A DNA stretch of 58,712 nucleotides from a virus. Lineage: Duplodnaviria; Caudoviricetes. The notes beneath the pieces were generated by a model. The model saw nothing but the letters and a program-made list of their open reading frames with translations, did not search any database and was not told the DNA's origin. Shown piece after piece: positions 19,651 through 39,804 of this stretch; within the stretch, counting starts at the first letter, position 1, and each line of letters opens with the position of its first letter. The stretch spans positions 1-58,712 of IMG/VR virus record IMGVR_UViG_3300014962_000008. One strand, given 5' to 3'. The position numbers and the translations under genes were made by a program.

Positions 19651-19717
19651 TTTCATCTCCCTTTCACTACAACACTGAAACGCAAACATACAACATATCC
19701 GGTCACAGCGTCAAGGA

Positions 19718-19912
19718 ACTGCACCGCGAAGCATCACGGTGCAAAAGTTTCAGAGCCTGCATCATCACCGCCAGCAGCTCCTGCACCACTTGCAGCATCA
19801 GGGTTACCCCTAAAGGGGTACCCCCTCTGTGCTGCAGCAGTTGGTGCATTTCGGGGAGCTGCACCATCTGCACCGTGATGCACCATGCTGTAAATGGTGC
19901 AAATGGTGCAGG
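19718..19912. repeat. Iteron-like TGCA[C/G/T]C array around a palindrome; putative replication origin or packaging site
   Basis: About 12 TGCACC/TGCAGC/TGCATC copies in both orientations; central tacccct-aa-aggggta and ggggtacccc palindromes at 19805-19824. Confidence 0.6.
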
Positions 19913-19968
19913 CCCAAAGCCAACGAAAATTCGCTGAGAAAACTTTTTTCACACCACATGCACTTTTT

Positions 19969-20044
19969 TGCAAATAGGGGGTTGCAACGCTGCACCACAT
20001 ATGAGAGAAGAGGTCATCAGAAACGCACTTACGGAGCAAATCAG
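19969..20044 (+). promoter_or_regulatory. Early promoter and conserved leader 1
   Basis: tgcaaatagggggTTGCAAcg (21 nt identical to 30689-30709); ATCAGAAACGCA at 20016; GGAG RBS. Confidence 0.7.
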
Positions 20045-20347: not shown

Positions 20348-20358
20348 CCCAACCTCTC

Positions 20359-20402
20359 GGGGGCTTCGGCCCCCACCCATCAGCAACGCAGGAGTACCCG
20401 AC
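20359..20402 (+). promoter_or_regulatory. UUCG hairpin followed by conserved leader 2
   Basis: gggggc-ttcg-gccccc with no U-tract, then ATCAGCAACGCAGGAGTAC (20379-20397). Confidence 0.7.
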
Positions 20403-20672
20403 ATGGCCCATCTCATCACCCCGCGCCTCAACATCAACGGCACCAGCGCCGTTGACCTGATCGACCCGCGCCGCAAGGCGATCGACCTGATCGGCGAGCT
20501 GGTCGAGACGCTCAAGCAGGTCACGCCCAACGGACGCGACTACCCGGCGGAGCACGCCACCCGTCTGAGTGGCGACCGTGCCACCCACTTCGACCGCCTG
20601 TCGGCCCTGCGCGACCTGCAGGCCGCCCTGCTTCAAGAAGCCGTACAGATCATGCAACAAGAGGAGGCTTGA
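20403..20672 (+). CDS. Early hypothetical protein
   Basis: ATG 20403 after AGGAG; MAHLITPRLNINGTS...PNGRDY. Confidence 0.8.
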   Translation: MAHLITPRLNINGTSAVDLIDPRRKAIDLIGELVETLKQVTPNGRDYPAEHATRLSGDRATHFDRLSALRDLQAALLQEAVQIMQQEEA

Positions 20673-21100: not shown

Positions 21101-21164
21101 GCTTGCAATGTAGCATTGCACGTGCCAGACAGGACAACCAATCAGCAACAAAGGAGACGCTGAC
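21101..21164 (+). promoter_or_regulatory. Promoter and conserved leader 3
   Basis: TTGCAA 21103, TTGCAC 21116, ATCAGCAACAAAGGAG 21141-21156. Confidence 0.65.
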
Positions 21165-21437
21165 ATGTTTAAGTACCTCATCGCCGCAGCCGCGCTGCTC
21201 ACGCCCACCGCCGCCAGCGCAGCCGAGATCATGATTACCTCCGGGCGCCAGAGCGTCCTGACCGAGGCCGCCAAGACCATCTGCCGCACGGTGATGGAGA
21301 CCAAGGGGCGGGCGGGCGAGACCTTCGACCGCGAGGTGTCCTACCTCCGCCTCACCCCCGACGAGCAGGTCTACCTGCTCTCGCTGTGCGTCCTCTACGC
21401 GCAGGGCCGTGTTGATCAGGCAAGGGCGCAGCGGTGA
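21165..21437 (+). CDS. Secreted/periplasmic hypothetical protein
   Basis: Signal-peptide-like N-terminus MFKYLIAAAALLTPTAASA. Confidence 0.7.
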   Translation: MFKYLIAAAALLTPTAASAAEIMITSGRQSVLTEAAKTICRTVMETKGRAGETFDREVSYLRLTPDEQVYLLSLCVLYAQGRVDQARAQR

Positions 21438-25691: not shown

Positions 25692-25750
25692 GGTATTGCA
25701 ACGCTCCGTTGCATGGCTTATGGGTCAGTCATCAGCAACGGAGATACCCC
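25685..25750 (+). promoter_or_regulatory. Promoter and conserved leader 4
   Basis: caaatagggtaTTGCAAcg (TTGCAA 25696), TTGCAT 25709, TATGGG at 17-nt spacing, ATCAGCAACGGAG 25731-25743. Confidence 0.7.
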
Positions 25751-26038
25751 ATGAACAACCCTGAATATACCGCCCACGCCATCAACGAAGCCCTTTCCGG
25801 GCATGGCATCGGCGTAGTCTGGGACGGCAGCGAGGCGGAAGCCGATGGCGTTGAGCTGTTCTACGTCTGCGCAGACGGCGACGACACCGACCTGATCGTC
25901 TTGGATCACGGCTACTGCCTCGAGATCGTAGAGAATGTGGGCGACCGCTCCTACGTGTCGGTCGACGAGGCAATGAGCTTCGATAGTTTGGCCGCCAAGC
26001 TGGTGAACATCATTGACCGACTGGGAGAAGAGGTATGA
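25751..26038 (+). CDS. Acidic hypothetical protein
   Basis: ATG 25751 after GGAG. Confidence 0.75.
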   Translation: MNNPEYTAHAINEALSGHGIGVVWDGSEAEADGVELFYVCADGDDTDLIVLDHGYCLEIVENVGDRSYVSVDEAMSFDSLAAKLVNIIDRLGEEV

Positions 26039-26295: not shown

Positions 26296-26489
26296 TGAGC
26301 ACCGAGAAAGAAATATCAGCCCGCGCGCGTAAACTGTTTGCGCGCCGTGAGCGCCTTGAGGCACAGCTCCGCGCGATTGACGCCGAGCTTGTCAAGGCGC
26401 GCAGTGAGTACCGCGAGGTGACGCGTGTCTTCATCAACGACATGCCGCGTTTCCGCAACGCAGTACACCAGATTAAGGTAGCAGCATGA
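26295..26489 (+). CDS. Hypothetical protein
   Basis: TAATG-coupled. Confidence 0.7.
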   Translation: MSTEKEISARARKLFARRERLEAQLRAIDAELVKARSEYREVTRVFINDMPRFRNAVHQIKVAA

Positions 26490-26722
26490 CCACTAAAAAC
26501 GAACGTATCGCCGCCCTTGACCTCGCCATTGAGCGAGGGGGCGGCATCGTCAAGTTCACCAAGGCCATGGGCGTGACGCACCAAGCGATCTACGCGTGGC
26601 GCAAGCGCGGCTGGGTGCCGCCCGAGCGTGCCGTCGTGATCGAGAGCATCTTCGGCATCGACCGCGGCCTGCTCATGAACCCAAATCTCGTGCGCGCCGT
26701 CAGCGGACAAGTGGGAGACTAA
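26486..26722 (+). CDS. Cro/YdaS-like HTH regulator
   Basis: GGIVKFTKAMGVTHQAIYAWRKRGWVPPERAVVIE. Confidence 0.8.
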   Translation: MTTKNERIAALDLAIERGGGIVKFTKAMGVTHQAIYAWRKRGWVPPERAVVIESIFGIDRGLLMNPNLVRAVSGQVGD

Positions 26723-26724
26723 AG

Positions 26725-28641
26725 TTGCGCTACGGTTCCGTCTGCAGCGGCATTGAGGCCGCGACTGCCGCATGGCACCACATGGGCTGGGAACCCGCCT
26801 TCTTTTCAGAGATTGAGGCTTTCCCGCGCGCGGTGCTTGAACACCACTACCCTGAAGTCCCACTGCATGGCGACTTCACAACCATTGAGAAGAACCAATA
26901 TGGCCAAATCGACCTCCTCGTTGGCGGAACCCCCTGCCAATCCTTCAGCGTTGCCGGTCTCCGAGGGGGACTGGATGATGAACGTGGTAACCTCGCCCTT
27001 GAGTTTTGCCGACTTGCTCAGCGCGAGCAACCTCGCTGGATTGTCTGGGAAAACGTCCCCGGTGTCCTGTCATCGAACGGAGGACGGGACTTTGGTTCCA
27101 TCCTCGGGGCGCTGGAAGACCTCGGGTACGGTCTCGCGTACCGGGTCTTGGACGCTCAGTACTTCGGAGTGGCCCAGCGACGCCGCCGTGTGTTTGTTGT
27201 CGGATATCTTGGAGACTGGCGACCTGCCGCAGCGGTTCTTTTTGAGCGCCACAGCATGTCAGGGCATCCTGCGCCGAGCCGAGAAGCGCGGAAAGAAGCT
27301 GCCAGAGCAGCTTCAGTCAGCACTCATGAGTGTGGTGGAATTGGAAGCTACAACGAAAGCGACATCAGCAGCCCTCTCCTCCGATCAGGAGCTGACAAAG
27401 GACACGGATGCGAAGCCCTCATCGCTGGAGGGGATGGACTTGCTCTGACCGAGACAGTCGGCACGCTGCGCACCCGCCGCCCGGGCGAGGGCGGCGTGCA
27501 AGGTGACTTCGACCACATCGTGCCGGTGGTCAGCCCTGCCTTGAACACGCAGAGCGGGTCGCACCACGCGCCCGACACCAAGGCCTATGTCGTTGTCCAC
27601 GGTACGCAAGACCCCTGTGTCTCCACAGACACTGCTTTCGCCTTGGGCCGCAATAATGGTGGCGAAAACGCCATCGCCTACTCCATCATGCCGATGAACA
27701 GCGGCAAGGACTACAAGGCCCGCGAGACTGAGGTCGCGCAGCCGATCATGGCGGGCGGCCCAGTGGGCGGCAATCAGGGCGGCGACTATGTTGTTCAGCC
27801 AACCATCGCCATCCAAGATGTTCGCGGTACCGATAAGGCACAGAACGGCAAGGGCTGGTCTGATGAGGGGGCTAGCTACACCGTTGACACCCACGCAACG
27901 CAAGGTGTGTCAAAAACAGTTGCCGCACGCAACGATCAGGACACGGCTTCCTGTGTGGCCTTTACGGCTCGCGATTACGGCGCGGATGCTACAGAAAACT
28001 TAGCACCCACCATGCGGTCTTTGGCGAGGGGCGCGGACGGGCATCAGTCAGGGTCACATGGTTTGGCCGTGGCATTCGCACAGAACACCCGCGATGAGGT
28101 TCGTCTGATTGGCGATGATCGCGCACTGTCATTGCAGCGCAGCCAGACACAGGCAATTGCACTCCAAGATGTGCGTGGGATTAAAAAAGCGCAGAATGGG
28201 CGCGGTTGGAACGATGATGGGTCAGCATATACAGTTGACACACGGGCAACGCAAGGTGTGGCTTACCCAGTGGGCAGCAATCAGGGCGGCTTTACCAACA
28301 GCCACCAGAACGGCGGCGTGATGCCTGCAGTTGCGATCGGCTTCAACGAGGACGGCACTGCGCGGACATTGACTGCGCGTCACGACAGCAGCCCGTGTGC
28401 TGATCGCGGGCCAGATGTGGTATCGCAAACCTCTGCCGTTCGCCGCCTGACCCCTGTTGAGTGCGAGAGGCTGCAAGGGTTTCCTGACAACTTCACGGCA
28501 ATCCCGTGGAAGAAGAAGGGACCAGAGCAGTGCCCCGATGGCCCGCGCTACAAGGCGCTCGGCAACAGCATGGCGGTTCCGGTCATGCGGTGGATCGGTG
28601 AGCGCATCCAGCTTGTTGATGACTTGATTTCGGTCCTATGA
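26725..28641 (+). CDS. C5-cytosine DNA methyltransferase with expanded modular variable region
   Basis: Motif I SVCSGIEA, IV GGTPCQSFS, VI WENVPG, VIII QRRRRVF, IX-X RRLTPVECERLQGFPD..GNSMAVPV; TTG start 26725 after GGGAG. Confidence 0.92.
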   Translation: MRYGSVCSGIEAATAAWHHMGWEPAFFSEIEAFPRAVLEHHYPEVPLHGDFTTIEKNQYGQIDLLVGGTPCQSFSVAGLRGGLDDERGNLALEFCRLAQREQPRWIVWENVPGVLSSNGGRDFGSILGALEDLGYGLAYRVLDAQYFGVAQRRRRVFVVGYLGDWRPAAAVLFERHSMSGHPAPSREARKEAARAASVSTHECGGIGSYNESDISSPLLRSGADKGHGCEALIAGGDGLALTETVGTLRTRRPGEGGVQGDFDHIVPVVSPALNTQSGSHHAPDTKAYVVVHGTQDPCVSTDTAFALGRNNGGENAIAYSIMPMNSGKDYKARETEVAQPIMAGGPVGGNQGGDYVVQPTIAIQDVRGTDKAQNGKGWSDEGASYTVDTHATQGVSKTVAARNDQDTASCVAFTARDYGADATENLAPTMRSLARGADGHQSGSHGLAVAFAQNTRDEVRLIGDDRALSLQRSQTQAIALQDVRGIKKAQNGRGWNDDGSAYTVDTRATQGVAYPVGSNQGGFTNSHQNGGVMPAVAIGFNEDGTARTLTARHDSSPCADRGPDVVSQTSAVRRLTPVECERLQGFPDNFTAIPWKKKGPEQCPDGPRYKALGNSMAVPVMRWIGERIQLVDDLISVL

Positions 28642-30683
28642 GCGGAGAGGACAACGACATGACAAACATCAGGGCAATTGCGCCCGCGCTACAGGCTGTT
28701 CGCGTTCCGGAGCCGCTCAGGGCATTGCCCGGCTGGCTGATCTGGCGCTATGAGCAGTTCGCAGGCGAGGCCAAGCCGCGCAAGATCCCCTACTGGGCAG
28801 ACGGCACCCGTCGCCACGGCCAGCAGGGCGGCCCGCAGGATCGCGATCGGCTGTCCACCTTCGTGGCTGCGCAGGACGCGGCGATCAGGCTGGGCTTCGA
28901 CGGCGTGGGCTTCGCGTCTCTGGCCGACTTTGGCTACGTCTTCCTCGACTTCGACGCCTGCGTCGACGTGCATGGCAACATGCCCAAGGAAGTCGAGGAC
29001 ATCGTCAACCGGACCTATGCCGAATACAGCCCGAGCGGCAAGGGCGTGCGCGCCGTGCTCAAGGGTGATCTGGGCAACCACAAGAGTTATCCAACGCCCG
29101 ACCAGTACGGCTTCGAGACGTTCAGTTCCACAGGCTTCGTGACCTTCACCGGCAACATCCTGCCGATCGTTGAGGTGCTGGGGTACGAGGACCACATCGC
29201 CGACGTGGACGAAAAGACCAAGGCGCTGTGCGAGCGGCGCTTCGGTGCGTCCGCAGGGACGACCTTCGACGCGGACGACTTCATGGCCGGGCGCGAGCCG
29301 AAGGTTGGCTTGACCGTCAGCCAGATGCAGGAGCTACTGTCGCACCTCGACCCAAGCATGGGCCGCGAGCCGTGGCTGCGCGTCGGTCTGGCCCTTCATC
29401 ACGAGACCGAGGGTGACGACACCGGCTTTGAGCTGTGGGACGAGTGGTCGAGTGAGGGCGAGACCTACCCGGGCACAGAGGGCCTGCGCTACCAGTGGGA
29501 AAGCTTCAGGCCGACACCGGGCAAGCGCCAAGTCACCATGGCCTCGGTGATCAAGATGGCCAAGGAGGCGGGCTACCGCCCCACTGAGGCAGGCAGCCGC
29601 GAGGAAGTGTTCGCCAAGGCCGAGGCGATCATGGCTGACCTGCCAGCGAAGAGCACAGGCCGCTTCGGCCCGGTGCCGATTTACGACCTGACCCAGCGCG
29701 AGCCGATGAGCTGGCTGATCAAGGCCGTGCTGCCCAAGGCCAAGCTTGGCATCCTGTTCGGCGCGTCAGGCAGCGGCAAGACCTTTGTCGCGCTGGACCT
29801 CGCCTTCTCAATCGCGCGGGGCAATGCGTGGCGCACGCGCAAGACGACCAAGGGGCGTGTTGTGATCATCGCCGCGGAGGGCGGCAGCGGTCTGGGCAAG
29901 CGCGCCGAGGCCTACGCACAGTTCCACGGCTTCGACCTGCGCAGCGTGCCAGACCTGCACGTCATCACCGCTGCACCCAACTTCCTCGACAGTGACGACA
30001 TCTCGGAGGTGATTGCCGAGATCAAGAACCTTGGCCCGGTCGATCTGGTCGTAACCGACACGCTGGCGCAGGTCACGCCGGGTGCGAACGAAAACACGTC
30101 CGAGGACATGGGCCGCGCACTGGCCAATCTCAACCTGCTGCACGAAGCGACGGGGGCGATGAACCTCGCCGTACACCACGCGGGCAAGGATCTCACCAAG
30201 GGCTCGCGCGGCTGGTCCGGCATCAAGGCCGCCGCCGACGTGCAGATCGAGGTGCTGCGCCACGAGAACGGCGAGCGCGAGATCGTCATCGAGAAGATGA
30301 AGGACGGCGAGGACGGGCTGCGATGGGGCTTCAAGCTCGAGGTGGTTGAGCTGGGCGTAGACTACGACGGCGACAGCATCACGAGTTGCGTCGCGGTGGA
30401 GGCCGACCTGTCTAAGCCAAGCGAGGACATGGAAGACCGCAAGGGCCTGAAGCGCCGCGGGCGCATCGAGAACCACGTCCTTGAGGTCATGACGCTCTTC
30501 GGCGCAGAGAGCGTTGTCAGCGCGGTCGAGCTTATTGACAAGGCCGTCGAGGCCCTTCCGGCACCGGAAGAGGGCAAGCGCGACACGCGCCGACAGTCCG
30601 TGGTGCGCGCGATTAACGGCCTGAGCCGGGAGAAAGATGGCCCACTTAAAGTGGAAGGCGGAAAAATTATCTTCTACGAGTAA
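28638..30683 (+). CDS. Primase-polymerase / PriCT / RecA-like (AAA_25) helicase fusion
   Basis: AEP motifs FLDFD and YAEYSPSGKG; W..VGLAL..WDEWS PriCT; Walker A GASGSGKT; DTL and HHAGK..RGWS. Alternative start 28659. Confidence 0.9.
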   Translation: MSGEDNDMTNIRAIAPALQAVRVPEPLRALPGWLIWRYEQFAGEAKPRKIPYWADGTRRHGQQGGPQDRDRLSTFVAAQDAAIRLGFDGVGFASLADFGYVFLDFDACVDVHGNMPKEVEDIVNRTYAEYSPSGKGVRAVLKGDLGNHKSYPTPDQYGFETFSSTGFVTFTGNILPIVEVLGYEDHIADVDEKTKALCERRFGASAGTTFDADDFMAGREPKVGLTVSQMQELLSHLDPSMGREPWLRVGLALHHETEGDDTGFELWDEWSSEGETYPGTEGLRYQWESFRPTPGKRQVTMASVIKMAKEAGYRPTEAGSREEVFAKAEAIMADLPAKSTGRFGPVPIYDLTQREPMSWLIKAVLPKAKLGILFGASGSGKTFVALDLAFSIARGNAWRTRKTTKGRVVIIAAEGGSGLGKRAEAYAQFHGFDLRSVPDLHVITAAPNFLDSDDISEVIAEIKNLGPVDLVVTDTLAQVTPGANENTSEDMGRALANLNLLHEATGAMNLAVHHAGKDLTKGSRGWSGIKAAADVQIEVLRHENGEREIVIEKMKDGEDGLRWGFKLEVVELGVDYDGDSITSCVAVEADLSKPSEDMEDRKGLKRRGRIENHVLEVMTLFGAESVVSAVELIDKAVEALPAPEEGKRDTRRQSVVRAINGLSREKDGPLKVEGGKIIFYE

Positions 30684-30688
30684 AAAAG

Positions 30689-30763
30689 TGCAAATAGGGG
30701 GTTGCAACGTCAGATTGAAGCTACTATATAGGGTTCATCGCAACGCATATAGGAGTTCATACA
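30689..30763 (+). promoter_or_regulatory. Promoter and conserved leader 5
   Basis: TTGCAA 30702, TATATA at 17-nt spacing, ATC-GCAACGCA at 30737, AGGAG RBS. Confidence 0.75.
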
Positions 30764-31075
30764 ATGGCAACTGCACCCGTACTCGATTTCGTTTCCGCCG
30801 CCATCGACCAGCTCGGCTCGGTCAAGGCCCGCATCGCAGAACTCAAGGCCGAGGAAGCCCGTCTGGCTTCCCTGATCGCCGAGAGCGGTCACGATGCGTA
30901 CGAGGGCAACCTCTTCCGCGCCACCGTCTCGAAGGTCGCCGACCGCCAGTCGCTGGACGTTAAGGCAGCCGAAGCCAAGCTCCGCGAGCTGGGCGTTGAT
31001 GGCCGCTGGTTCAGCAAGAACCAGAAGACCAGCAAGGGGTACACGACCGTCAAGGTCGTGGCTCGCAAGGCGTAA
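30764..31075 (+). CDS. Conserved phage hypothetical protein
   Basis: IDQLGSVKARIAELKAEE...YEGNLFRATV; strong RBS. Confidence 0.8.
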   Translation: MATAPVLDFVSAAIDQLGSVKARIAELKAEEARLASLIAESGHDAYEGNLFRATVSKVADRQSLDVKAAEAKLRELGVDGRWFSKNQKTSKGYTTVKVVARKA

Positions 31076-32064: not shown

Positions 32065-32303
32065 CCTACCAGATTGTTAAGAACAAGCCGTTCCCGGGCA
32101 TCAAGCGCGGCACGCGCTCGAAGTATCCCTTCAGCAAGATGAAAGTTGGAGATGCCTTCGAGGTGACCGACAAGCCCTGCAATCCAAAAGTCCGTAACGT
32201 ACTGGCGTCGGCTGCACGTCAATACGCCCGGCACCACAACCCCAAGGCTGCCTTCGCGACGCGCATTGTTGATGGTAGCCTCTGGATCTGGAGGACAGCA
32301 TAA
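32061..32303 (+). CDS. Small basic putative DNA-binding protein
   Basis: KYPFSKMKVGDAF...IWRT. Confidence 0.7.
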   Translation: MTYQIVKNKPFPGIKRGTRSKYPFSKMKVGDAFEVTDKPCNPKVRNVLASAARQYARHHNPKAAFATRIVDGSLWIWRTA

Positions 32304-33544
32304 TGGCCCACGCCAAGCTTAGCCCATCGGGCGCGCATCGCTGGATGGCGTGCCCGGGCAGCGTGGTGCTGGAGGCTCAATACCCGGACGAGGGCAGTAG
32401 CTACGCCCGAGAGGGAAGCGCTGCGCACGAACTGGCCGCGATCGTCCTCGAGGAAGATGACGATCTGGCCGCCAACTACATCGGCAAGAAGGTCGAGTTC
32501 TTCGAGGGCGATGACCCGCTCTTGTGGGACGTGACGCAGAGCATGGCCGATCACGTCGATGACTACGTCAGGCTTGTCCGCGAGTACGCCGAGGGCGGGA
32601 CGCTCATGGTCGAGCAGCGCCTTGGCATTGGCCACATCACGGGGGAGGAAGGTGCCAAGGGCACCAGCGACGTTGTGATCGTCAAGGGCGGCGAACTGAT
32701 CGTCATTGACCTCAAGTTTGGCATGGGCGTGAAGGTAGACGCTGCGGACAACCCGCAGCTCCAGCTCTACGCGCTGGGTGCGCTGAACGAGTTCGACATG
32801 CTGGGGGACTTCCACACCGTCACTATGGTGGTCCACCAGCCTCGCTTGAACCACGTCAGCGAATGGTCGATCCCGGTTGCGCAGCTACGCGAGTTCGCTC
32901 TTTCCGCCGAGGCTGCAGCGAACATTACAAGGGATGCCGAAGACGTTTTGGCGCAGAACGGCAAGCTTGATTGGATGTACCTCAACCCCGGCGAGAAGCA
33001 GTGCAAGTTCTGCAAGGCCAAGTCCTCGTGCCCTGCGCTGCGTGCCGAGATCACCGAAGTGGTCGGCGGGTCTGCCGCTGCCACGATCGAGGAGTTCGCT
33101 GAGTTCACGCCGGAGACGGTCGACATGCAGACGGGTGATAACTACCTGCCGATCGCCATGTCCAAGGTCGAGCTGGTCGAGCAGTGGTGCAAGGCCGTTC
33201 GCGCCGAGGTCGAGCGTCGCCTGCTCGCCGGGCAGCCGGTAGACGGCTACAAGCTTGTCGAGGGCAAGCGCGGCTCACGCAAGTGGAGCAGCGAGGCGGA
33301 CGTTGAGGCTCTCTTCAAGTCTTTCCGCCTGCGGCAAGACGAGATGTACGATTTCAGCTTGATTTCCCCGACAAAGGCGGAGAAGCTGTTCAAGGAAAAC
33401 CCCAAGCGCTGGTCCAAGGTTCTCGACCTTGTCACGCAAAGCTCGGGAAAGCCGTCTGTGGCACCCGCCACCGACAAGCGGCAAGAGATTGCCGTTCAAT
33501 CCGTTGCGGATGACTTCCGCGACTTACTGCAAACTGACAATTGA
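32303..33544 (+). CDS. Cas4-like PD-(D/E)XK exonuclease (DUF2800-type)
   Basis: HAKLSPSGAHRWMACP, GTSD, IDLKFG, QLQLYA, CKFCKAKSSC. Confidence 0.9.
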   Translation: MAHAKLSPSGAHRWMACPGSVVLEAQYPDEGSSYAREGSAAHELAAIVLEEDDDLAANYIGKKVEFFEGDDPLLWDVTQSMADHVDDYVRLVREYAEGGTLMVEQRLGIGHITGEEGAKGTSDVVIVKGGELIVIDLKFGMGVKVDAADNPQLQLYALGALNEFDMLGDFHTVTMVVHQPRLNHVSEWSIPVAQLREFALSAEAAANITRDAEDVLAQNGKLDWMYLNPGEKQCKFCKAKSSCPALRAEITEVVGGSAAATIEEFAEFTPETVDMQTGDNYLPIAMSKVELVEQWCKAVRAEVERRLLAGQPVDGYKLVEGKRGSRKWSSEADVEALFKSFRLRQDEMYDFSLISPTKAEKLFKENPKRWSKVLDLVTQSSGKPSVAPATDKRQEIAVQSVADDFRDLLQTDN

Positions 33545-33563
33545 AGAAGTGGACAACTGAACT

Positions 33564-34148
33564 ATGGCTACTCGCATTATGCTCAAGAACGTCGTTCTGG
33601 CTTTCCCGGCTCTGGCCGAACCGCAAGCCTTCGGTGAAGGCGACCCGGCTTATGGCGCAAAGTTCCCCATTGAACCTAACAGCGAACAGCAGAAGGCCAT
33701 TGAAGCCGCAATGCTGGCCGAGGCCAAGGAGACGTGGAAGGACAAGGCAGACAGCGTTCTGAAGATGCTGGCCGAAGACAACAAGCTGGCCTTCACCAAG
33801 AAGGTCTATCGGTCAAAGAAGACTGGAGAGGCCTATCAGGGCTTCGAAGGCAAGCACTACCTGTCCGCGCGCAATGCCAAGACCCAGCCGACTGTGTTTA
33901 ACCAGTATGGCGAAGAACTGGCCAGCAAGGGCGACATTGAGCGTCAGGCGTTCAGCGGTGCCGTTGTCAACGCCTCGATCGAGATCTGGGCGCAGGACAA
34001 CAAGTGGGGCCGTCGCATCAACTGCTCGCTGCGCGGCGTCATGCTGACCGGCGAGGGTGAAAACTTCGGTGGGGGCTCTAGCCCAGCCAGCGCCGATGAA
34101 TTTGCCTCTCTGGCCAAGGCCAAGGCCGATGCGGAGGACATCCTGTGA
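33564..34148 (+). CDS. Single-stranded DNA-binding protein (DUF2815-type)
   Basis: [11 protein letters not shown]...[15 protein letters not shown]...GENF; acidic tail; between exonuclease and polymerase. Confidence 0.85.
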
Positions 34149-34399
34149 GCGACGCCGGGCACAACGTGACCGACGACCGCCTGCGTCTTCTGATCGAGCG
34201 CGTCGAGCGTTTGGAAGAAGAGAAGGCGGCTATCGCCGATGACATCAAGGATGTGTTCCTTGAGGCCAAGGCGGTAGGCTACGACGCCAAGATCATGAAG
34301 CAGGTGATCCGCCTGCGGAAGATGCAGCCCGACGACCGGCGTGAGATGGAAACCATCCTCGACCTGTACAAGTCGGCCCTTGGCATGGACCTACTTTAA
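34145..34399 (+). CDS. gapR: GapR-like nucleoid-associated protein (DUF2312)
   Basis: [56 protein letters not shown]. Confidence 0.9.
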
Positions 34400-34403
34400 C
34401 ACT

Positions 34404-34556
34404 ATAGGAGCGGTGTGACGGGATCATTGTCCCTCTGGCAATGTCGCTAAGCCCGTCACACCCTCTATTCTGGCGAGCCGCGCGAAGGTGCGGGTGTACT
34501 CCTGCGTTGCTGATACTCCTCCGCGCGGCTCACCAGAATAGAGGGACTTATCAGCA
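34404..34556. ncRNA. Structured RNA / polymerase 5' leader: two overlapping hairpins, with a loop complementary to early-gene leaders
   Basis: Stem 34412-34422/34452-34462 (11 bp); stem 34461-34488/34518-34545 (26 of 28 bp); 34496-34514 is the exact reverse complement of 20379-20397. Confidence 0.75.
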
Positions 34557-36553
34557 TGGCCACTCTCTGGCTCGATCTCGAAACGTACAGCACCATCCCG
34601 ATCAAGAACGGCGCACACAAGTACGCCGAGGGCGCCGAGGTGCTCCTCGTTGCGTGGGCATGGGACGACGAGCCCGTGGTCGTGTGGGACTGCACAGAAG
34701 GCGTGTGGGATACCTTCGCGCACGGCTTGCAGAAGGCGGTTGATCAGGCGGAGAGCGTGGTCATCCACAACAGCGCTTTTGACCGCACGGTGTTGCGTCA
34801 CTGCGGCGTAAATATACCTGTGGAAAAAGTTGATGACACCATGATCACCGCTCTGGCGCACAGTTTGCCGGGTTCTCTGGGCCAGCTCTGTGACGTTCTG
34901 GGCGTGCCGCAAGATAAGTCTAAGGACAAAGCCGGTAGACGGTATATACAGTTGTTCACGAAGCCGTGTCCGAGGAACTGGAAGATACGGCGAGCAACGA
35001 GGGAGACACACCCTGATGAGTGGAACGCCTTCATCGAATACGCCCGCCTCGATGTGGACGCAATGCGAAACATACATCGACGCCTGCCTCATTGGAACAA
35101 TACACACGGTGAGCGGCACCTTTGGCGACTCGACCAGAGAATTAATGACCGTGGTGTGTCCGTCGATCTGGACTTCGCCCAATGCGCAATCGGAGCTTTT
35201 TCACGAGCTACGCGATCTCTGGCCACTCGTGCAGCCGCTCTGACGGGCGGTATTGTCTCCTCAACAACGCAGCGGCAGAAGTTCATTGACTACCTGCGCG
35301 ACGTGCGCGGCTTCGAGGCCGATGACCTGACCAAGGGCACCGTGGAGGGCTTGCTCAAGGGCGAGCTTGACCCGAAGGTGCGCGAGCTGCTGGAGATCCG
35401 GCAGCAGGCCGCAGCGACCAGCCCGGCCAAGTACAAGGTGCTGATCGAGGCGACATCGCGCGACGGACGCCTGCGCGGCACGATCCAGTTCTGCGGTGCC
35501 GCGCGCACCGGGCGCGATGCGGGGCGGATATTCCAGCCGCAGAACCTGCCCCGCTCGCCTGACTGGTTCGACGGCGAGGTGCAGGAAACCACGATCGAGG
35601 CCATCAAGCACGACTGCGAAGACATCATTTATGAGAACGTCAGCGAACGCTGCGCCTTCGCGGTGCGCGGGACGCTGCTGGCCGCGCCCGGCAAGAAGCT
35701 TGTCATTGCCGACTTGTCGAACATCGAAGGCCGCGTGCTGGCGTGGCTGGCGGGTGAGGATTGGAAGATCGAAGCCTTCAAGGAATACGACAAGGGCGTT
35801 GGGCCTGACCTCTACAAGGTGACCGCCGGGCGCATCTTGAACAAAGATCCGTTCGAAGTTACCAAGACCGAGCGACAGAACCAAGGCAAGGTTCCCGAAC
35901 TAGCGGGGGGCTACGGGGGCGGGCTGGGTGCGTACCGCAAGATGGGTGGAGACACCTTCAACGCCATGGACGATGACACGATCGGGGGGATCGTGCAGGC
36001 ATGGCGCGCGGCGCACCCAGCCACAAAACGCCTGTGGTATGATGTCGAGGGCGCCGTTCGCTCCGCCGTCCGTGAGCCGGGTGAGAGCTTTGAAGTGCGC
36101 GCCCTGCTGCGCGTCGACACGGCCAAGGGCCCGGACAACGTGGACTACGTCCGCATCCGCCTGCCGAGCGGTCGCTACCTGTGCTACCGCAACATGCACA
36201 TCACCTCCGGCGACGATGAGTTCGGCGGCAAGGTGGCGGGGCAACTCGTCTACGAGGGCGTCAACCAGTTCACGCGCAAGTGGGAGCTGCTGGAGACCTA
36301 TTACGGCAAGCTGGTCGAGAACATCGTGCAGGCCATCGCCCGGGACGTGTTCATGTCCGGCATGCGCCGCGCCGAAGAGGCTGGCTATTGCGTCGTCCTG
36401 CGCGTGCATGACGAACTGGTCTGCGAAGTGCCAGACGATCCGTCATACACGCACGAGCAACTGGCCGAGATGATGGCCACGAACCCTAGCTGGTCACTTG
36501 GCCTGCCGCTGGCAGCGGCTGGCTTCGAAAGCTACCGATACAGAAAAGAATGA
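34556..36553 (+). CDS. Family A DNA polymerase (APSE-like) with 3'-5' exonuclease
   Basis: Exonuclease DLET and HNSAFD; RTGR; motif A ADLSNIEGR; motif B R..QGKVPELAGGYG; motif C VHDE. Confidence 0.95.
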   Translation: MATLWLDLETYSTIPIKNGAHKYAEGAEVLLVAWAWDDEPVVVWDCTEGVWDTFAHGLQKAVDQAESVVIHNSAFDRTVLRHCGVNIPVEKVDDTMITALAHSLPGSLGQLCDVLGVPQDKSKDKAGRRYIQLFTKPCPRNWKIRRATRETHPDEWNAFIEYARLDVDAMRNIHRRLPHWNNTHGERHLWRLDQRINDRGVSVDLDFAQCAIGAFSRATRSLATRAAALTGGIVSSTTQRQKFIDYLRDVRGFEADDLTKGTVEGLLKGELDPKVRELLEIRQQAAATSPAKYKVLIEATSRDGRLRGTIQFCGAARTGRDAGRIFQPQNLPRSPDWFDGEVQETTIEAIKHDCEDIIYENVSERCAFAVRGTLLAAPGKKLVIADLSNIEGRVLAWLAGEDWKIEAFKEYDKGVGPDLYKVTAGRILNKDPFEVTKTERQNQGKVPELAGGYGGGLGAYRKMGGDTFNAMDDDTIGGIVQAWRAAHPATKRLWYDVEGAVRSAVREPGESFEVRALLRVDTAKGPDNVDYVRIRLPSGRYLCYRNMHITSGDDEFGGKVAGQLVYEGVNQFTRKWELLETYYGKLVENIVQAIARDVFMSGMRRAEEAGYCVVLRVHDELVCEVPDDPSYTHEQLAEMMATNPSWSLGLPLAAAGFESYRYRKE

Positions 36554-36563
36554 GCAATCTCAT

Positions 36564-36761
36564 ATGCTTACGCAATTAAACCCTTCTCTACCCCTCGACA
36601 CGCCCAAGGGCGCGGGTTACGCTGTGGCCGTCATTGACTACGGTCTGGAGCATAGCCTGCTATGGGTAGTCGCGCTAAACGATACCGGCGAGATATGGTG
36701 CGTCCCGAACAGCGAGGTGAGGATGCAGAAAAACTGGTCCGCAGGACGGCGCGGGGAATGA
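36564..36761 (+). CDS. Conserved small phage protein
   Basis: MLTQLNPSLPLDTPKG..AVIDYG..TGEIW. Confidence 0.7.
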   Translation: MLTQLNPSLPLDTPKGAGYAVAVIDYGLEHSLLWVVALNDTGEIWCVPNSEVRMQKNWSAGRRGE

Positions 36762-37051
36762 CCCCGGCAGGCAAGCTGCAGGGGCACCTGCGCAAGCTGG
36801 TGCAGGGCAGCGGGGGTCAGTACCGCAAGATCCGCTACGAGGGGCGCAGGGGCTGCCCAGACTGCCTGATATGGTGGGACTGGCCTGCCCTCGCCTTTGT
36901 CGAGATCAAGGCGGAGGGTGACCGCTACAGCAAGCTGCAGGAGCGTGAGATTGAGCGCATGCGCGCGGCGAATATCCCCGTATTCACCGCAAGGACTGCG
37001 GAGGATGTGGAAAAAATCGTTGACCTAGTTAAAAAGGGGGTTGCAACCTGA
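36758..37051 (+). CDS. VRR-NUC domain nuclease
   Basis: GRRGCPDCLI...FVEIKA...SKLQ. Confidence 0.85.
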   Translation: MTPAGKLQGHLRKLVQGSGGQYRKIRYEGRRGCPDCLIWWDWPALAFVEIKAEGDRYSKLQEREIERMRAANIPVFTARTAEDVEKIVDLVKKGVAT

Positions 37052-37097
37052 CATTGCAAGTGCTATAAGGGCGCATCAGCAACGAAGGAGTAACCAA
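37031..37097 (+). promoter_or_regulatory. Promoter and conserved leader 6
   Basis: gggggTTGCAA 37041, TTGCAA 37054, TGcTATAAG at 17-nt spacing, ATCAGCAACGAAGGAGTA 37075-37092. Confidence 0.8.
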
Positions 37098-37259
37098 ATG
37101 TCCAAGACCCAAGCAGAACTGAAGGCCATTGCCTACTCGCTGGCCGACGAGATCGAGACCCGCGCTGCGCCCCGCATCAAGGCTGGGCTGAGCCGCGAGA
37201 AGGCCCTGATGCTGACTATCATGGAGCTGGGCGGCAAGATCACGATCGTGAAAGGGTAG
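37098..37259 (+). CDS. Hypothetical protein (53 aa)
   Basis: ATG 37098 after AAGGAG. Confidence 0.75.
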   Translation: MSKTQAELKAIAYSLADEIETRAAPRIKAGLSREKALMLTIMELGGKITIVKG

Positions 37260-37262
37260 GAC

Positions 37263-38000
37263 ATGGCTCGGACAATTTGCTGGTTTAGCTGCGGCGCTGC
37301 CAGCGCCGTTGCTACCAAGCTGACGTTAAAAGATACGCCAGACGCTATCATTGCATACTGCGAAACCGGCGCTGAACATCTCGACAACGAGCGTTTTTTG
37401 CGCGACTGCGAAGAATGGTTTGGCAAAGAGGTTACGCGCATCCGGTCGGAGCAATACGCCTCTACTTGGGAAGTGTGGGAGAAGCGACGCTATCTGGCGG
37501 GGATTAACGGCGCGCCTTGCACCAGCGAATTGAAGTTTATTCCTAGGCTTAACTTTCAGCTTCCCAGCGACATTCATGTGTTTGGCTACACCAACGACAA
37601 AGCGGACGTGAACCGCGCCAAGCGCATGGTGGAGACATACCCGGAGATGAAGCAGCGGCACCCGTTAATAGACTACAAGCTGGATAAACGGGCTTGTTTG
37701 GCAATGGTTATGAACGCCGGAATTGAAGCGCCGGTAATGTACTCGTTGGGGTTCCAGAACAACAATTGCATCCCCTGCGTAAAGGCTACCAGCCCCTCTT
37801 ACTGGGCGTTGGTTCGGAAACAATTTCCAGAGGAGTTCAAGCGTATGTCAGATTTGTCCCGCGCGCTTGGTGCGCGGCTGACGCGCATTAAAGGCGATCG
37901 CGCTTTTATTGATGAGATACCGGCAGACCAGCCCACGACCGATCCAATTGCACCGGCGTGCGATTTTCTCTGCCAGTTCGCGGAGAGCGAATTAGACTAA
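37263..38000 (+). CDS. PAPS-reductase-like (adenine nucleotide alpha-hydrolase) protein
   Basis: PP-loop-like WFSCGAASA; APCT..LK; NNNCIPCVKA; ACDFLC. Confidence 0.75.
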   Translation: MARTICWFSCGAASAVATKLTLKDTPDAIIAYCETGAEHLDNERFLRDCEEWFGKEVTRIRSEQYASTWEVWEKRRYLAGINGAPCTSELKFIPRLNFQLPSDIHVFGYTNDKADVNRAKRMVETYPEMKQRHPLIDYKLDKRACLAMVMNAGIEAPVMYSLGFQNNNCIPCVKATSPSYWALVRKQFPEEFKRMSDLSRALGARLTRIKGDRAFIDEIPADQPTTDPIAPACDFLCQFAESELD

Positions 38001-39364
38001 TGACTTTCAAGCCCCACCCATATCAAGAGGAGGCCATGGCGCACCTGTACAAGGTGCGCCGCAGCGCCCTGTGGATGCCGATGGGCGGCGGCAAGACTGT
38101 CACCACCCTGACGGCCCTCGACAACCTGAGCATGGTCGAGGACGTATTCCCCGCGCTGGTACTGGCACCGCTGCGCGTCGCCCGATCGACGTGGCCCGAG
38201 GAAGTCAAGAAGTGGCCGCACCTCTCGCACCTCCGGGTCAGTGTCATCACCGGCACGCCGAAGCAGCGCGAGCGGGCGCTGGCCGAGGAGGCGGACATTT
38301 ATTGCACTAACTACGACAACCTCGTGTGGCTCCGCAACGCGCTGGGCAACGAGTGGCCCTTCAAGACGGTCGTGGCGGACGAGTTCACGCGCCTGAAGTC
38401 CTTCCGCATCTGGCAGGGCGGCTCCAGAGCGCGTGCGCTTGGTCAGGTGGCCCACACCCACGTCAAGCGCTTCATCGGGCTGACTGGCACGCCCGCACCG
38501 AACGGCGTCAAGGATCTCTGGGGCCAGATATGGTTCCTCGATCAGGGCGAGCGGCTGGGGCGCACGTTCAGCGCCTTCGAGCAGCGCTGGTTCCGCAAGG
38601 GCTACGACGGCTACAGTCTCGTGCCGTATGAGCACACGCAGAAGGAGGTCGAGGACAAGCTGCGTGACATCTGCCTGACCGTTCAGGGCTTGCAGGTGGA
38701 CGAGCCGATCACCAGCCCAATCTACGTTGACCTGCCGCCCGCGGCGCGCAAGGTGTACGACGAAATGGAGAAGGAGATGTTCGCCGTCATCAACGATGAG
38801 GGCGTCGAGGCGGCCAACGCGGCGGTGAGGACACAGAAGTGCTTGCAGCTTGCCAACGGCGCGCTGTACGTTGACGAGGACGGGAACTGGGAGGCCGCCC
38901 ACGATGCAAAGCTGGACGCGCTGGAAAGCATCATTGAAGAGGCGAATGGTGCTCCGGTGCTGGTGGCCTACAATTTCAAGCACGATCTGGAGCGGCTACG
39001 GCGTCGTTTCCCTAAAGGCCGGGTCTTGGACGCTGACCCTGACACGATCAAACAGTGGAACGCGGGACGGATTTCGGTCTTATTCGCTCACCCTGCGTCA
39101 GCAGGCCACGGCCTCAACCTCGCCGACGGAGGAAACATCCTCGCATTCTTCGGAGTAAACTGGAACCTCGAGGAGCACATGCAGATCATCGAACGTATCG
39201 GGCCCATGCGCCAGAAGCAGGCAGGCTATGATCGCCCAGTGTTTGTTTACCCCATCCTCGCCCGCAAGACGGTCGACGGTCTGGTCATGGACAGACTGTC
39301 GTCGAAGAAGAGCGTGCAGGAAATCTTGTTGGAAGCGCTGAAGCGCCGGAAAGGAACGAAGTGA
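38000..39364 (+). CDS. SNF2-family helicase
   Basis: MGGGKT, ADEF, LTGTP, HPASAGHGLNL, QIIERI. Confidence 0.92.
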   Translation: MTFKPHPYQEEAMAHLYKVRRSALWMPMGGGKTVTTLTALDNLSMVEDVFPALVLAPLRVARSTWPEEVKKWPHLSHLRVSVITGTPKQRERALAEEADIYCTNYDNLVWLRNALGNEWPFKTVVADEFTRLKSFRIWQGGSRARALGQVAHTHVKRFIGLTGTPAPNGVKDLWGQIWFLDQGERLGRTFSAFEQRWFRKGYDGYSLVPYEHTQKEVEDKLRDICLTVQGLQVDEPITSPIYVDLPPAARKVYDEMEKEMFAVINDEGVEAANAAVRTQKCLQLANGALYVDEDGNWEAAHDAKLDALESIIEEANGAPVLVAYNFKHDLERLRRRFPKGRVLDADPDTIKQWNAGRISVLFAHPASAGHGLNLADGGNILAFFGVNWNLEEHMQIIERIGPMRQKQAGYDRPVFVYPILARKTVDGLVMDRLSSKKSVQEILLEALKRRKGTK

Positions 39365-39804
39365 CCCACACCTACATTTGCCGGACGTGCGGCATCGAAC
39401 ACGACACGATCCCCAAGGCCATGGCCTGTTTCGACGCGCACGAGGAGGAAGCCGTTGGCCAGTTCATCGAGGCGGCGGCGGACGAGGTACTGCTTGAAGT
39501 ATCGCCGCCGGATGTCGAAGTGCCCCTCGCCGAGGCCCCTGAGCTGCTGGGCCGCGCAGCGCGTCACATGCACGACCGCTCCAATGTCTATGACAAGCCG
39601 GAGGGCGAGCGGTCTATGGGCCGCGCCGTGCAGGCCTTCAATGCCATCACCGGGCACAACCTGACCGAGAGCGAAGGCTGGCTATTGCTGCAGGTGCTCA
39701 AGGACGTGCGCCTGTTCACTCGGTCGGAGTACCATCCGGACAGCGCCGAAGATTGTATTGCTTACGCGGCGCTGAAGGCCGAGGCCAAGAGTAAGGGGCT
39801 GTGA
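39361..39804 (+). CDS. Conserved phage protein (DUF6378-like, possible nucleotide hydrolase)
   Basis: R...YD...GERSM...LK.VR...DSAEDCIAYAAL. Confidence 0.7.
   Translation: MTHTYICRTCGIEHDTIPKAMACFDAHEEEAVGQFIEAAADEVLLEVSPPDVEVPLAEAPELLGRAARHMHDRSNVYDKPEGERSMGRAVQAFNAITGHNLTESEGWLLLQVLKDVRLFTRSEYHPDSAEDCIAYAALKAEAKSKGL

Follow-up and report, generated by a model that had tools for sequence, protein, structure and literature searches.

In the c4 system of phages P1 and P7, the loops of an antisense RNA are complementary to a downstream ribosome-binding region. Phage hairpins processed by RNase III include the lambda N leader and the T7 R sites, and some of them occlude a ribosome-binding site (RBS) that is freed by cleavage. 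Small RNAs (sRNAs) of alphaproteobacteria with loops directed against the Shine-Dalgarno sequence (SD) place these C/U-rich loops on SDs, and in anti-antisense leaders of the rpoS/DsrA type a hairpin of the untranslated region (UTR) buries the SD. The immI operon of P1/P7 is described as one of c4, icd and ant1/2 in which full repression of ant needs the C4 antisense RNA, and in which a C4 binding site exists (PMC8198154). For T4, RegB is described as cutting GGAG in early initiation regions and RegA as a binder of ~30 mRNAs, at the AUG or immediately 5' of it (PMC3014915). Here we describe the 156-nt spacer between a gapR-like gene and a DNA polymerase gene in a caudoviricete genome of 58,712 nucleotides (IMG/VR record IMGVR_UViG_3300014962_000008, positions 1 to 58,712; hereafter the window). 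The spacer is predicted to fold into two hairpins. The second of these (hairpin 2) appears to bury the SD of the polymerase gene, and its loop matches, and co-varies with, the leaders of other operons of the phage. This match is the main point of our analysis and is absent from an earlier note on the same DNA, which had read the spacer as a multi-state translational switch. The two hairpins, the polymerase ribosome-binding region, the leaders, the candidate promoter and the early genes discussed below all lie on the + strand.

A self-search of the window identified the apex of hairpin 2 (34496-34514) as the exact reverse complement of 20379-20397, over 19 nt (E 1.8e-4). The leader AUCAGCAAC, which opens the other early operons of the phage and is located just 5' of the SD, has its reverse complement in the nearly invariant unpaired loop GUUGCUGAUA within this apex. 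Of the six exact copies of ATCAGCAAC in the window, four immediately precede an SD and an ATG on the sense strand; the fifth is the loop itself, read from the opposite strand, and the sixth falls within coding sequence. When up to one mismatch was allowed, 35 matches were found in the window compared to 12.5 +/- 4.0 expected. The 19-nt partner of the apex belongs to the leader at 20379-20405, which comprises AUCAGCAAC, the SD AGGAG and the ATG (20403) of an 89-amino-acid early open reading frame (ORF) and follows a GC hairpin, not a promoter. AUCAGCAAC and an SD also precede ATG 21165 (21141-21167) and ATG 25751 (25731-25753), in both cases after a TTGCAA-type promoter, and ATG 37098 (37075-37100), after a TTGCAA-N17-TATAAG promoter, where 18/19 positions match the loop complement. 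A degenerate leader, AUCGCAAC, with an SD and ATG 30764 (30737-30766), heads the operon that ends with gapR, and that operon carries the element itself if transcription reads through. The window leaders are mostly 5-9 nt downstream of a sigma70-like promoter (TTGCAA-N17-TATAAG-like), three leader sites follow a GC hairpin instead of a promoter, and the same leader is found at early and middle operons of the relatives examined, including one with a different promoter type (G009). Since it occurs with differing promoter types and after hairpins, the motif looks like a feature of translation initiation at the RNA level, not like part of a promoter.

The loop and the leaders co-vary over four types, in contigs of up to 59 kb. 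Loop GUUGCUGAU is accompanied by leader AUCAGCAAC in the majority of genomes, loop GUUGUUGAU by leader AUCAACAAC in one genome (G006, 6/6 leaders) and loop GUUGCUGAG by leader CUCAGCAAC (2/2 leaders). The fourth loop, GUUGUUGGU, was found in seven distinct elements, and its leader ACCAACAAC is present at 10/11 leader-context sites in six loci; the eleventh site reads CCCAACAAC, and none reads AUCAGCAAC. This clade is without a cis AUCAGCA before the AUG, which suggests that the relation of the loop to the leaders is the universal one. Complementarity between loop and leader often continues through the SD; its length is 19 nt in the window and 15 nt in G004, two sites of G006 reach 16 nt each, and G010 has stretches of 13 and 11 nt.

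To place the loop in its structural context, the spacer was folded. The minimum free energy (MFE) was -87.8 kcal/mol compared to -59.8 +/- 4.3 kcal/mol in 200 shuffles, none of which equalled it (z = -6.46). In both the MFE and the centroid, hairpins 1 and 2 are present side by side, as a single dominant structure. Hairpin 1 (34412-34462) consists of an 11-bp GC-rich stem (34412-22/34452-62, 11/11 complementary), an inner 7-bp stem (34425-31/34437-43) and the apical loop CCUCU (34432-36). Hairpin 2 (34463-34543) is a 23-bp helix in which P1 (34463-73/34533-43, extendable to 34461/34545, 11-13 bp) and P2 (34475-84/34522-31, 10 bp) are separated by a conserved 1x1 mismatch, C34474/A34532; taken as 28-nt arms (34461-88/34518-45) it is 93% complementary. 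The polymerase ribosome-binding region (34541-34558) contains the SD GAGGG (34541-45), which is paired in P1, then AUCAGCA (34550-56) and the ATG (34556-58). Since the 3' arm of hairpin 2 has the next gene's SD at its base, the helix would keep that RBS closed. In the predicted ensemble P(unpaired) does not exceed 0.06 for 34540-34544, which is consistent with the proposal of the earlier note that hairpin 2 locks the polymerase SD, and the start codon is mostly unpaired. The apical part of hairpin 2 (34485-34521) carries the anti-leader (34499-34517), made up of CUCCUGC and, after it, the unpaired loop UUGCUGAUACU (34507-17); its core GUUGCUGAU is at 34506-34514. P(unpaired) is above 0.93 throughout 34507-34516.

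Relatives of the element were collected in several ways. A polymerase protein search returned 28 IMG/VR loci, several of which share the gapR/two-hairpin/polymerase layout, and a covariance model (CM) of hairpin 2 and the RBS was built from seven sequences. The CM matched 27 IMG/VR loci (21 distinct), rising to 47 loci (31 distinct) after a flank-pattern scan, in which 82 stretches were obtained and 65 new together with 21 earlier loci were run through the CM. Among 67 metagenome loci retrieved with a polymerase alignment, there were 44 CM matches (38 distinct); of at least 217 relatives that the metagenome scan found, 80 were kept. Contigs of four runs labelled as RNA-Seq, although probably of DNA, showed only DNA of relatives and gave no transcript starts or ends. 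The metagenome and IMG/VR sets are not independent, as they partly hold the same contigs. A loop-pattern scan of viral contigs gave 119 stretches, mostly chance or leader copies, of which the CM matched four of the first 100 loci and then L159 and L165. A scan of genome contigs with polymerase peptides gave 32 stretches and no relative among them. The loop 10-mer is identical in 28/31 distinct IMG/VR sequences and 27/38 distinct metagenome sequences while the stems vary, and AUCAGCA is directly before the AUG in 22/31 distinct elements. Across the 21 distinct sequences first obtained, hairpin 2 with the RBS has a predicted folding energy of -45.5 to -65.2 kcal/mol in every case (21/21), and the mean P(unpaired) of the SD is 0.02-0.53, with values <= 0.2 in 14/21. 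The length of the hairpin-2 helix is constant across the family, and in every case the 3' arm finishes with the purine SD tract, which is 5-14 nt 5' of the start codon.

The helix itself is supported by covariation. In the CM, "helix 1" is the 20-bp main helix of hairpin 2 (and not hairpin 1) and "helix 2" is a small apical helix. Changes on both sides were observed in 16/26 model pairs in the IMG/VR alignment (A3), compared to 5.3 +/- 1.5 in shuffles (0/500 as high) and at most 7 in slid controls. The metagenome alignment (A7) gave 17/26 pairs compared to 5.7 +/- 1.3 in shuffles; the metagenome pair counts were taken from A7 and not from A6, which has 28 minus-strand rows. In the main helix, compensatory pairs numbered 14/20 with 99.5% of cells paired (A3) and 15/20 with 98.9% (A7), and across alignments 98.9-99.8% of its cells were paired. 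These alignments were fitted to the model and so favour the structure; the slid and shuffled controls are still far lower. On the + strand, 17 G-U cells were counted in the main helix (A7). No Rfam 15 family matched anywhere in the window at gathering thresholds, and at E <= 10 the sole match in 34300-34650 was a chance one to mir-134 on the minus strand (18.1 bits vs a gathering score of 68). Judged by comparative sequence evidence, the element is a new and well-supported structured RNA family of at least 38 distinct sequences.

The position of the element is more constant than the gene that follows it. gapR is upstream in 20/21 distinct relatives. In the window the first gene past the element is the polymerase, and in most other relatives the 3' end of the element coincides with the start codon of another gene, which precedes the polymerase, overlaps the polymerase start and is translationally coupled to it. 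Since the downstream gene changes while the place after gapR stays, the element is tied to that position and to the RBS of the next gene, not to the polymerase as such. A mosaic junction was observed at AUCAGCAUG, the 3' end of the element, in L007, L008/L009, L012, L014, L016, L021 and L027-L031. The genes after it are the polymerase, a PAPS-reductase-like gene, an ORF of ~98 amino acids or an ORF of ~250 amino acids with Cys-rich motifs, the non-polymerase ones then overlapping the polymerase start. The shared motif AUCAGCAUG may be a recombination linker.

We lean towards a model in which the element is an SD-occluding UTR structure whose loop acts as an anti-leader, pairing with the leaders and linking the replication operon to early transcripts. 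Hairpin 2 would close the RBS of the next gene, the polymerase here and other genes in relatives, and its apex would expose CUCCU..GUUGCUGAUA, the complement of the leader and SD (AUCAGCAAC-N-GGAG) of the early and middle operons. The same loop would also complement AUCAGCA before the regulated AUG, where that site exists. The long helix would thus have a double role, in occluding the RBS and as a scaffold for the loop, and RNA-RNA pairing of the loop with leaders would couple replication-operon expression to the early transcripts. Pairing as RNA, the identity of the regulated partner and the mode of SD release are what we infer. Leader binding is predicted to touch only 34487-34515, which would leave the SD shut; action of the loop on the leaders is therefore the more natural direction, and the SD would have to be released in another way. 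The helix has a constant length of 23 bp and a conserved 1x1 mismatch, which suggest RNase III, by analogy with known phage hairpins, and cleavage of the long helix by RNase III is our preferred guess for the release. Hairpin 1 would be accessory, a 5'-terminal stabiliser if the candidate promoter described below is real and otherwise a stabiliser of the 3' end of the gapR operon or a weak terminator for it.

An extended version of this model is conceivable but doubtful, namely an RNA-only timing circuit with a common 9-nt leader on every early and middle operon and one anti-leader loop in the lock of the replication operon. Processing of the helix in one step, with RNase III as a possible enzyme, would both open the polymerase SD and release a small hairpin RNA, the loop of which would pair with the leader and SD of all early operons and lead to their shut-off or decay. 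Loop and leaders would then co-evolve as an address system for the whole genome, and the circuit would be the counterpart, at the RNA level, of T4 RegA/RegB. SD-burying hairpins and phage antisense RNAs are already known, and the new part is the link from the loop to a shared leader. If the pairing is real, the phage would coordinate early and replication functions compactly and without a protein regulator, and the locus would offer a clean natural case of trans RNA-RNA covariation that can be read from metagenomes alone.

Several results weigh against the anti-leader model. Shuffled queries reach a maximum of 13-15 nt, and contiguous matches of 10-13 nt are therefore within that range. The duplex energy exceeded that of 298 random windows for only 2/6 window leaders; these two duplexes have -43.5 and -38.0, and the random windows have their minimum at -36.8 and their 5th percentile at -31.3. 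The confinement of predicted leader binding to the region above P2 means that binding alone would not free the SD. One relative (G003) has the loop GUUGCUGAC and no matching leader in its 49 kb, the contig being 77% complete, and the first base is C or G in some leaders where the loop has U (3/6 in G008). In addition, the apical pairing of the family model is unlike the single-sequence MFE, the apical helix of the CM covaries weakly (2/6 pairs) and was not relied on, and the SD is only partly buried in 7/21 sequences. Co-variation of loop and leaders is equally expected from copies of one double-stranded DNA site for a protein, and gene conversion that homogenises an inverted copy of the leader would produce it as well.

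The first of these two possibilities corresponds to a DNA-level element, in which the 9-bp motif would be bound by a phage or host protein at +1 of early promoters and the spacer would carry one inverted copy within a palindrome, as an operator, roadblock or cruciform; a phage HTH protein such as the 78-amino-acid regulator at 26486-26722 would be a candidate for this binding. A change in DNA-binding specificity would give co-varying copies, the motif is at or near predicted transcription starts, and the element is also a DNA palindrome on which the CM scores 21-43 bits on the minus strand. In contrast, every leader-context copy has the sense orientation and a short, constant spacing to an SD and ATG, three of them follow a hairpin and not a promoter, the likeness runs on through the SD, and G-U pairs are tolerated on the + strand only. 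In addition, the helix that has an SD as its 3' arm carries the inverted copy precisely at its unpaired apex, and we consider a DNA-level origin distinctly unlikely. A pure processing or stability element, located between the gapR operon and its downstream neighbour and acting there as an RNase III-type site that also stabilises mRNA ends, would account for the 23-bp helix with its constant length and conserved mismatch and for the mosaic junction and differing downstream genes, and intercistronic RNase III hairpins are well known in phages. The loop would then be a protein contact and the leader likeness a by-product of recombination among leader copies. This explanation accounts neither for loop-leader complementarity held through four co-varying types over kilobases nor for the SD always being at the base of the 3' arm, and seems unlikely to us. 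The position of the hairpin at the SD of a replication operon, together with the conserved single-stranded loop, is also what would be expected of an autogenous operator, bound at hairpin 2 or its loop by the polymerase, the Gp2.5-like single-stranded DNA-binding protein (SSB) or GapR, which would repress its own operon in the manner of T4 gp43 and gp32. T4 gp43, gp32 and RegA bind their target RNAs (PMC3014915). Autogenous control alone does not explain the co-variation with leaders, and the first regulated gene in relatives is often not the polymerase; we regard autogenous control as improbable to a still greater degree.

The multi-state switch of the earlier note combined an extension of hairpin 1 that competes with hairpin 2, two anti-SD elements, and ribosomes that set the state by finishing gapR or by reading an 11-codon upstream ORF (GTG 34415). 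The sequence elements on which it was built all exist at the coordinates quoted. ATAGGAG (34404-10) and CTCTAT (34463-68) are present, the apex of hairpin 1 GTCCCTCT (34429-36) is 8/8 complementary to AGAGGGAC (34540-47), and TGCTGATA (34508-15) is 8/8 complementary to TATCAGCA (34549-56). The reading of the spacer as a translational control element is supported, as is the importance given to the TGCTGATA loop, which is nearly invariant and predicted to be unpaired. An extended hairpin 1 could also form transiently, before the 3' arm of hairpin 2 has been transcribed. The mutually exclusive states, in contrast, were replaced by one dominant fold, the alternatives being 7-16 kcal/mol worse and two of the three not conserved. 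Forcing the hairpin-1 extension cost 7.4 kcal/mol (-81.9 vs -89.3), and the extension amounts to 2-4 contiguous nt in 21/21 distinct relatives, never above shuffles (p >= 0.21). Forcing the apex/SD pairing cost 12.6 kcal/mol; its 8 nt are found only in the window (0/500 shuffles), the other 20 relatives having 2-6 nt (p >= 0.10). The complement between loop and start region is partly borne out: it is kept as 8 nt in 13/21 relatives, as 7 nt in one and as 5 nt in one, with one compensatory change preserving it in L165, and it falls to <= 4 nt in six, the GUUGUUGGU clade being wholly without the cis site. Forcing this pairing (nested) cost 16.2 kcal/mol, and since the partner in the start region begins 3 nt past the base of the 23-bp helix, the loop would be unable to reach it while hairpin 2 is intact. 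The upstream ORF lacks a start codon in 6/20 relatives, and in the rest it ranges from 1 to 138 codons encoding unrelated peptides. The gapR stop is 62 nt upstream of hairpin 2, and a ribosome terminating there would probably reach only the non-conserved extension. As evidence that would speak against a switch, the earlier note had named a single stable fold with an accessible SD; the predicted fold is single and stable, and the SD within it is occluded. Collectively, these results suggest that the observation was real and the proposed switch mostly wrong, and we give it very little probability.

Compared with the described systems, the element resembles P1/P7 c4 in its arrangement, as a structured RNA upstream in its target's operon with a loop complementary to a downstream ribosome-binding region. 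Complementarity to the downstream start was found in the relatives keeping 8 nt (13/21), 7 nt (1) or 5 nt (1), and is absent in the GUUGUUGGU clade. Unlike c4, the best and universal partners of the phage loop are the leaders of other operons, over ~17 kb of the window, the hairpin that carries the loop itself buries the SD of the next gene, and the two have no sequence or Rfam relation. With T4 RegA, RegB, gp43 and gp32 it would have in common that initiation regions of many early mRNAs are targeted, at the early-to-middle transition, and that replication genes are controlled; those regulators are proteins, whereas the candidate here is an RNA loop that would recognise a shared 9-nt leader by base pairing. 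The long near-perfect helix of about two turns between phage genes resembles the lambda N leader and T7 R sites, and P1, the 1x1 mismatch and P2 together give the ~20 bp or more of near-continuous double-stranded RNA of an RNase III substrate; the described sites are not known to carry a loop complementary to leaders of other operons. A C/U-rich unpaired loop for an SD, or a UTR hairpin that buries one, is also found in the anti-SD sRNAs and the rpoS/DsrA-type leaders. In contrast to the anti-SD sRNAs, the element is within an mRNA spacer and is not a free-standing sRNA gene as far as known, and its target motif is phage-specific and 5' of the SD. The folding energies given above (-45.5 to -65.2 kcal/mol in 21/21) and a main helix paired in 98.9-99.8% of cells do not fit an RNA thermometer of the ROSE or fourU type. 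Nor does the element resemble a riboswitch, as it is a simple extended hairpin whose invariant unpaired bases are a ~10-nt loop that tracks other phage RNAs, and no Rfam riboswitch matched. In its proposed action it blends an SD-occluding leader hairpin, the P1 c4 arrangement and a shut-off like that of T4 RegA/RegB, and it is a member of none of these classes. In Rfam and in the literature outside subscription journals, we found no account of a UTR hairpin loop that is complementary to, and co-evolves with, a shared phage leader.

The nearest cultured phages are Caulobacter phage RW (MK929790) and its kin, with a polymerase identity of 58.5%. RW has the same gene order of DUF2800, DUF2815, gapR-like gene and polymerase, and its 96-nt spacer is predicted from a single-sequence fold to form two hairpins, the second pairing CUCCG with CGGAG of the polymerase RBS. 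Unlike the element, the RW spacer has no GUUGCUGAUA loop and gave no match to the CM (L035, among 37 sources). The two spacers are analogous but unrelated. In the RW polymerase gene (MK929790.1 24426-27299), the 665-amino-acid polymerase of the window aligned as two pieces across 2874 nt, which implies that the RW gene has an insertion of roughly 290 codons.

A lead to the host came from a loop-pattern scan of genome contigs. This gave 56 stretches, and the single CM match among them was not an element but a spacer of a clustered regularly interspaced short palindromic repeats (CRISPR) array in Sandarakinorhabdus limnophila DSM 17366 (NZ_ATVO01000010.1; L283 5150-6170). There are 16 repeats in the locus, which is adjoined by cas1/cas4-like and cas2-like ORFs. 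The 34-nt spacer (L283 5452-5485) matches the hairpin-2 apex at 32/34 positions in L190 and 22/34 in the window. On the basis of this sequence match, the spacer gives a lead to hosts among the Sphingomonadales and brings the question within reach of experiment. The RNA family resides in abundant freshwater and aquatic phages.

Hairpin 1 is conserved in place and not in sequence. It abuts hairpin 2 with a gap of 0-2 nt in 20/20 relatives that keep this part, and its stem sequences differ between relatives, with folding energies of -11 to -32 kcal/mol; by visual impression only, its loops are mostly C/U-rich. No U-tract follows it, the 3' flank being the C/U-mixed 5' arm of hairpin 2, and no + strand terminator-like site was called in 33500-37300. 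Upstream is a candidate sigma70-type promoter (34380-34408), with TTGGCA at 34380-85, a 17-nt spacer and TATAGG at 34403-08, for which the predicted start is at ~34415, 3 nt into hairpin 1. The layout agrees with the phage's own promoter at 37040, and by eye the TTGGNN-N17-TA-box geometry is present in 17/20 relatives with hairpin 1. The T of the CTT or ATT codon that forms TTG is retained, though CTT makes up 13.6% of Leu codons and ATT 20.6% of Ile codons. A consensus scan made no call at 34380-34408; it asks for T at position 6 and for this reason also passes over the promoter at 37040. The conserved geometry and the kept rare codon suggest a weak promoter whose transcript would start with hairpin 1. 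In L014, L015 and L031 (2560-2612), a deletion places the 3' arm of hairpin 1 directly after the 5' portion of gapR, so that hairpin 1 and the candidate promoter are gone and hairpin 2 is retained. The sequence CACTATAGGAG after the gapR stop (34400-34410) resembles the promoter core of a T7/SP6-class phage RNA polymerase. The idea of such a promoter was dropped: the sequence is present as a single copy in the window, and sites with <= 2 mismatches number 4 compared to 6.4 expected. A reading of TATAGG as a host -10 box is possible instead.

The early promoters at 19981, 21102, 25695, 30701 and 37040 of the window and in G001, G002, G004, G006, G008 and G010 have an unusual common architecture, with an A/T-rich stretch, TAGGGGG, TTGCAAC, a second RTTGCA half-site ~5 nt on in the spacer and then the -10. 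This architecture suggests that a factor is bound at the early promoters. Promoters of G009 and of the GUUGUUGGU clade are TTGAC..CTGCAAC variants. At window 20348-20403, G010 36814 and G006 920, the leader motif and an RBS come 4 nt after the GC hairpin GGGGGCUUCGGCCCCC. This arrangement is intra-operonic, without a promoter and kept in relatives, and may be a processing or re-initiation point.

The IMG/VR record is linear, 58.7 kb in length, 61% GC and 98% complete. Late genes on the minus strand, including the small and large terminase, portal and tail fibres, extend to ~19.3 kb, and the early/replication block is downstream of them on the + strand. A tRNA search of the window found none. 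The replication block contains a primase-helicase (28638-30683), a DUF2800 exonuclease (32303-33544) and an SSB of the Gp2.5/Enc34 type (33564-34148). The gapR-like gene (34145-34399, 84 amino acids; Pfam GapR_DNA-bd, E 9.8e-34) is the final gene of the upstream operon, with its TAA stop at 34397-34399. The family A DNA polymerase (34556-36553, 665 amino acids; Pfam DNA_pol_A/DNA_pol_A_exo1, PHROG 17) begins with MATLWLDLET, in agreement with its homologues. Other genes of the block encode VRR-NUC, a PAPS-reductase-like protein and an SNF2 helicase. The PAPS-reductase-like (PHROG 424) and DUF6378 proteins, at 37263-38000 and 39361-39804, are on either side of the SNF2 helicase, and the pair may be the mark of a DNA-modification module. 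In the divergent region between late and early genes (19700-19960), short repeats of the GGTGCA/TGCACC type are dense and may be operators or an origin.

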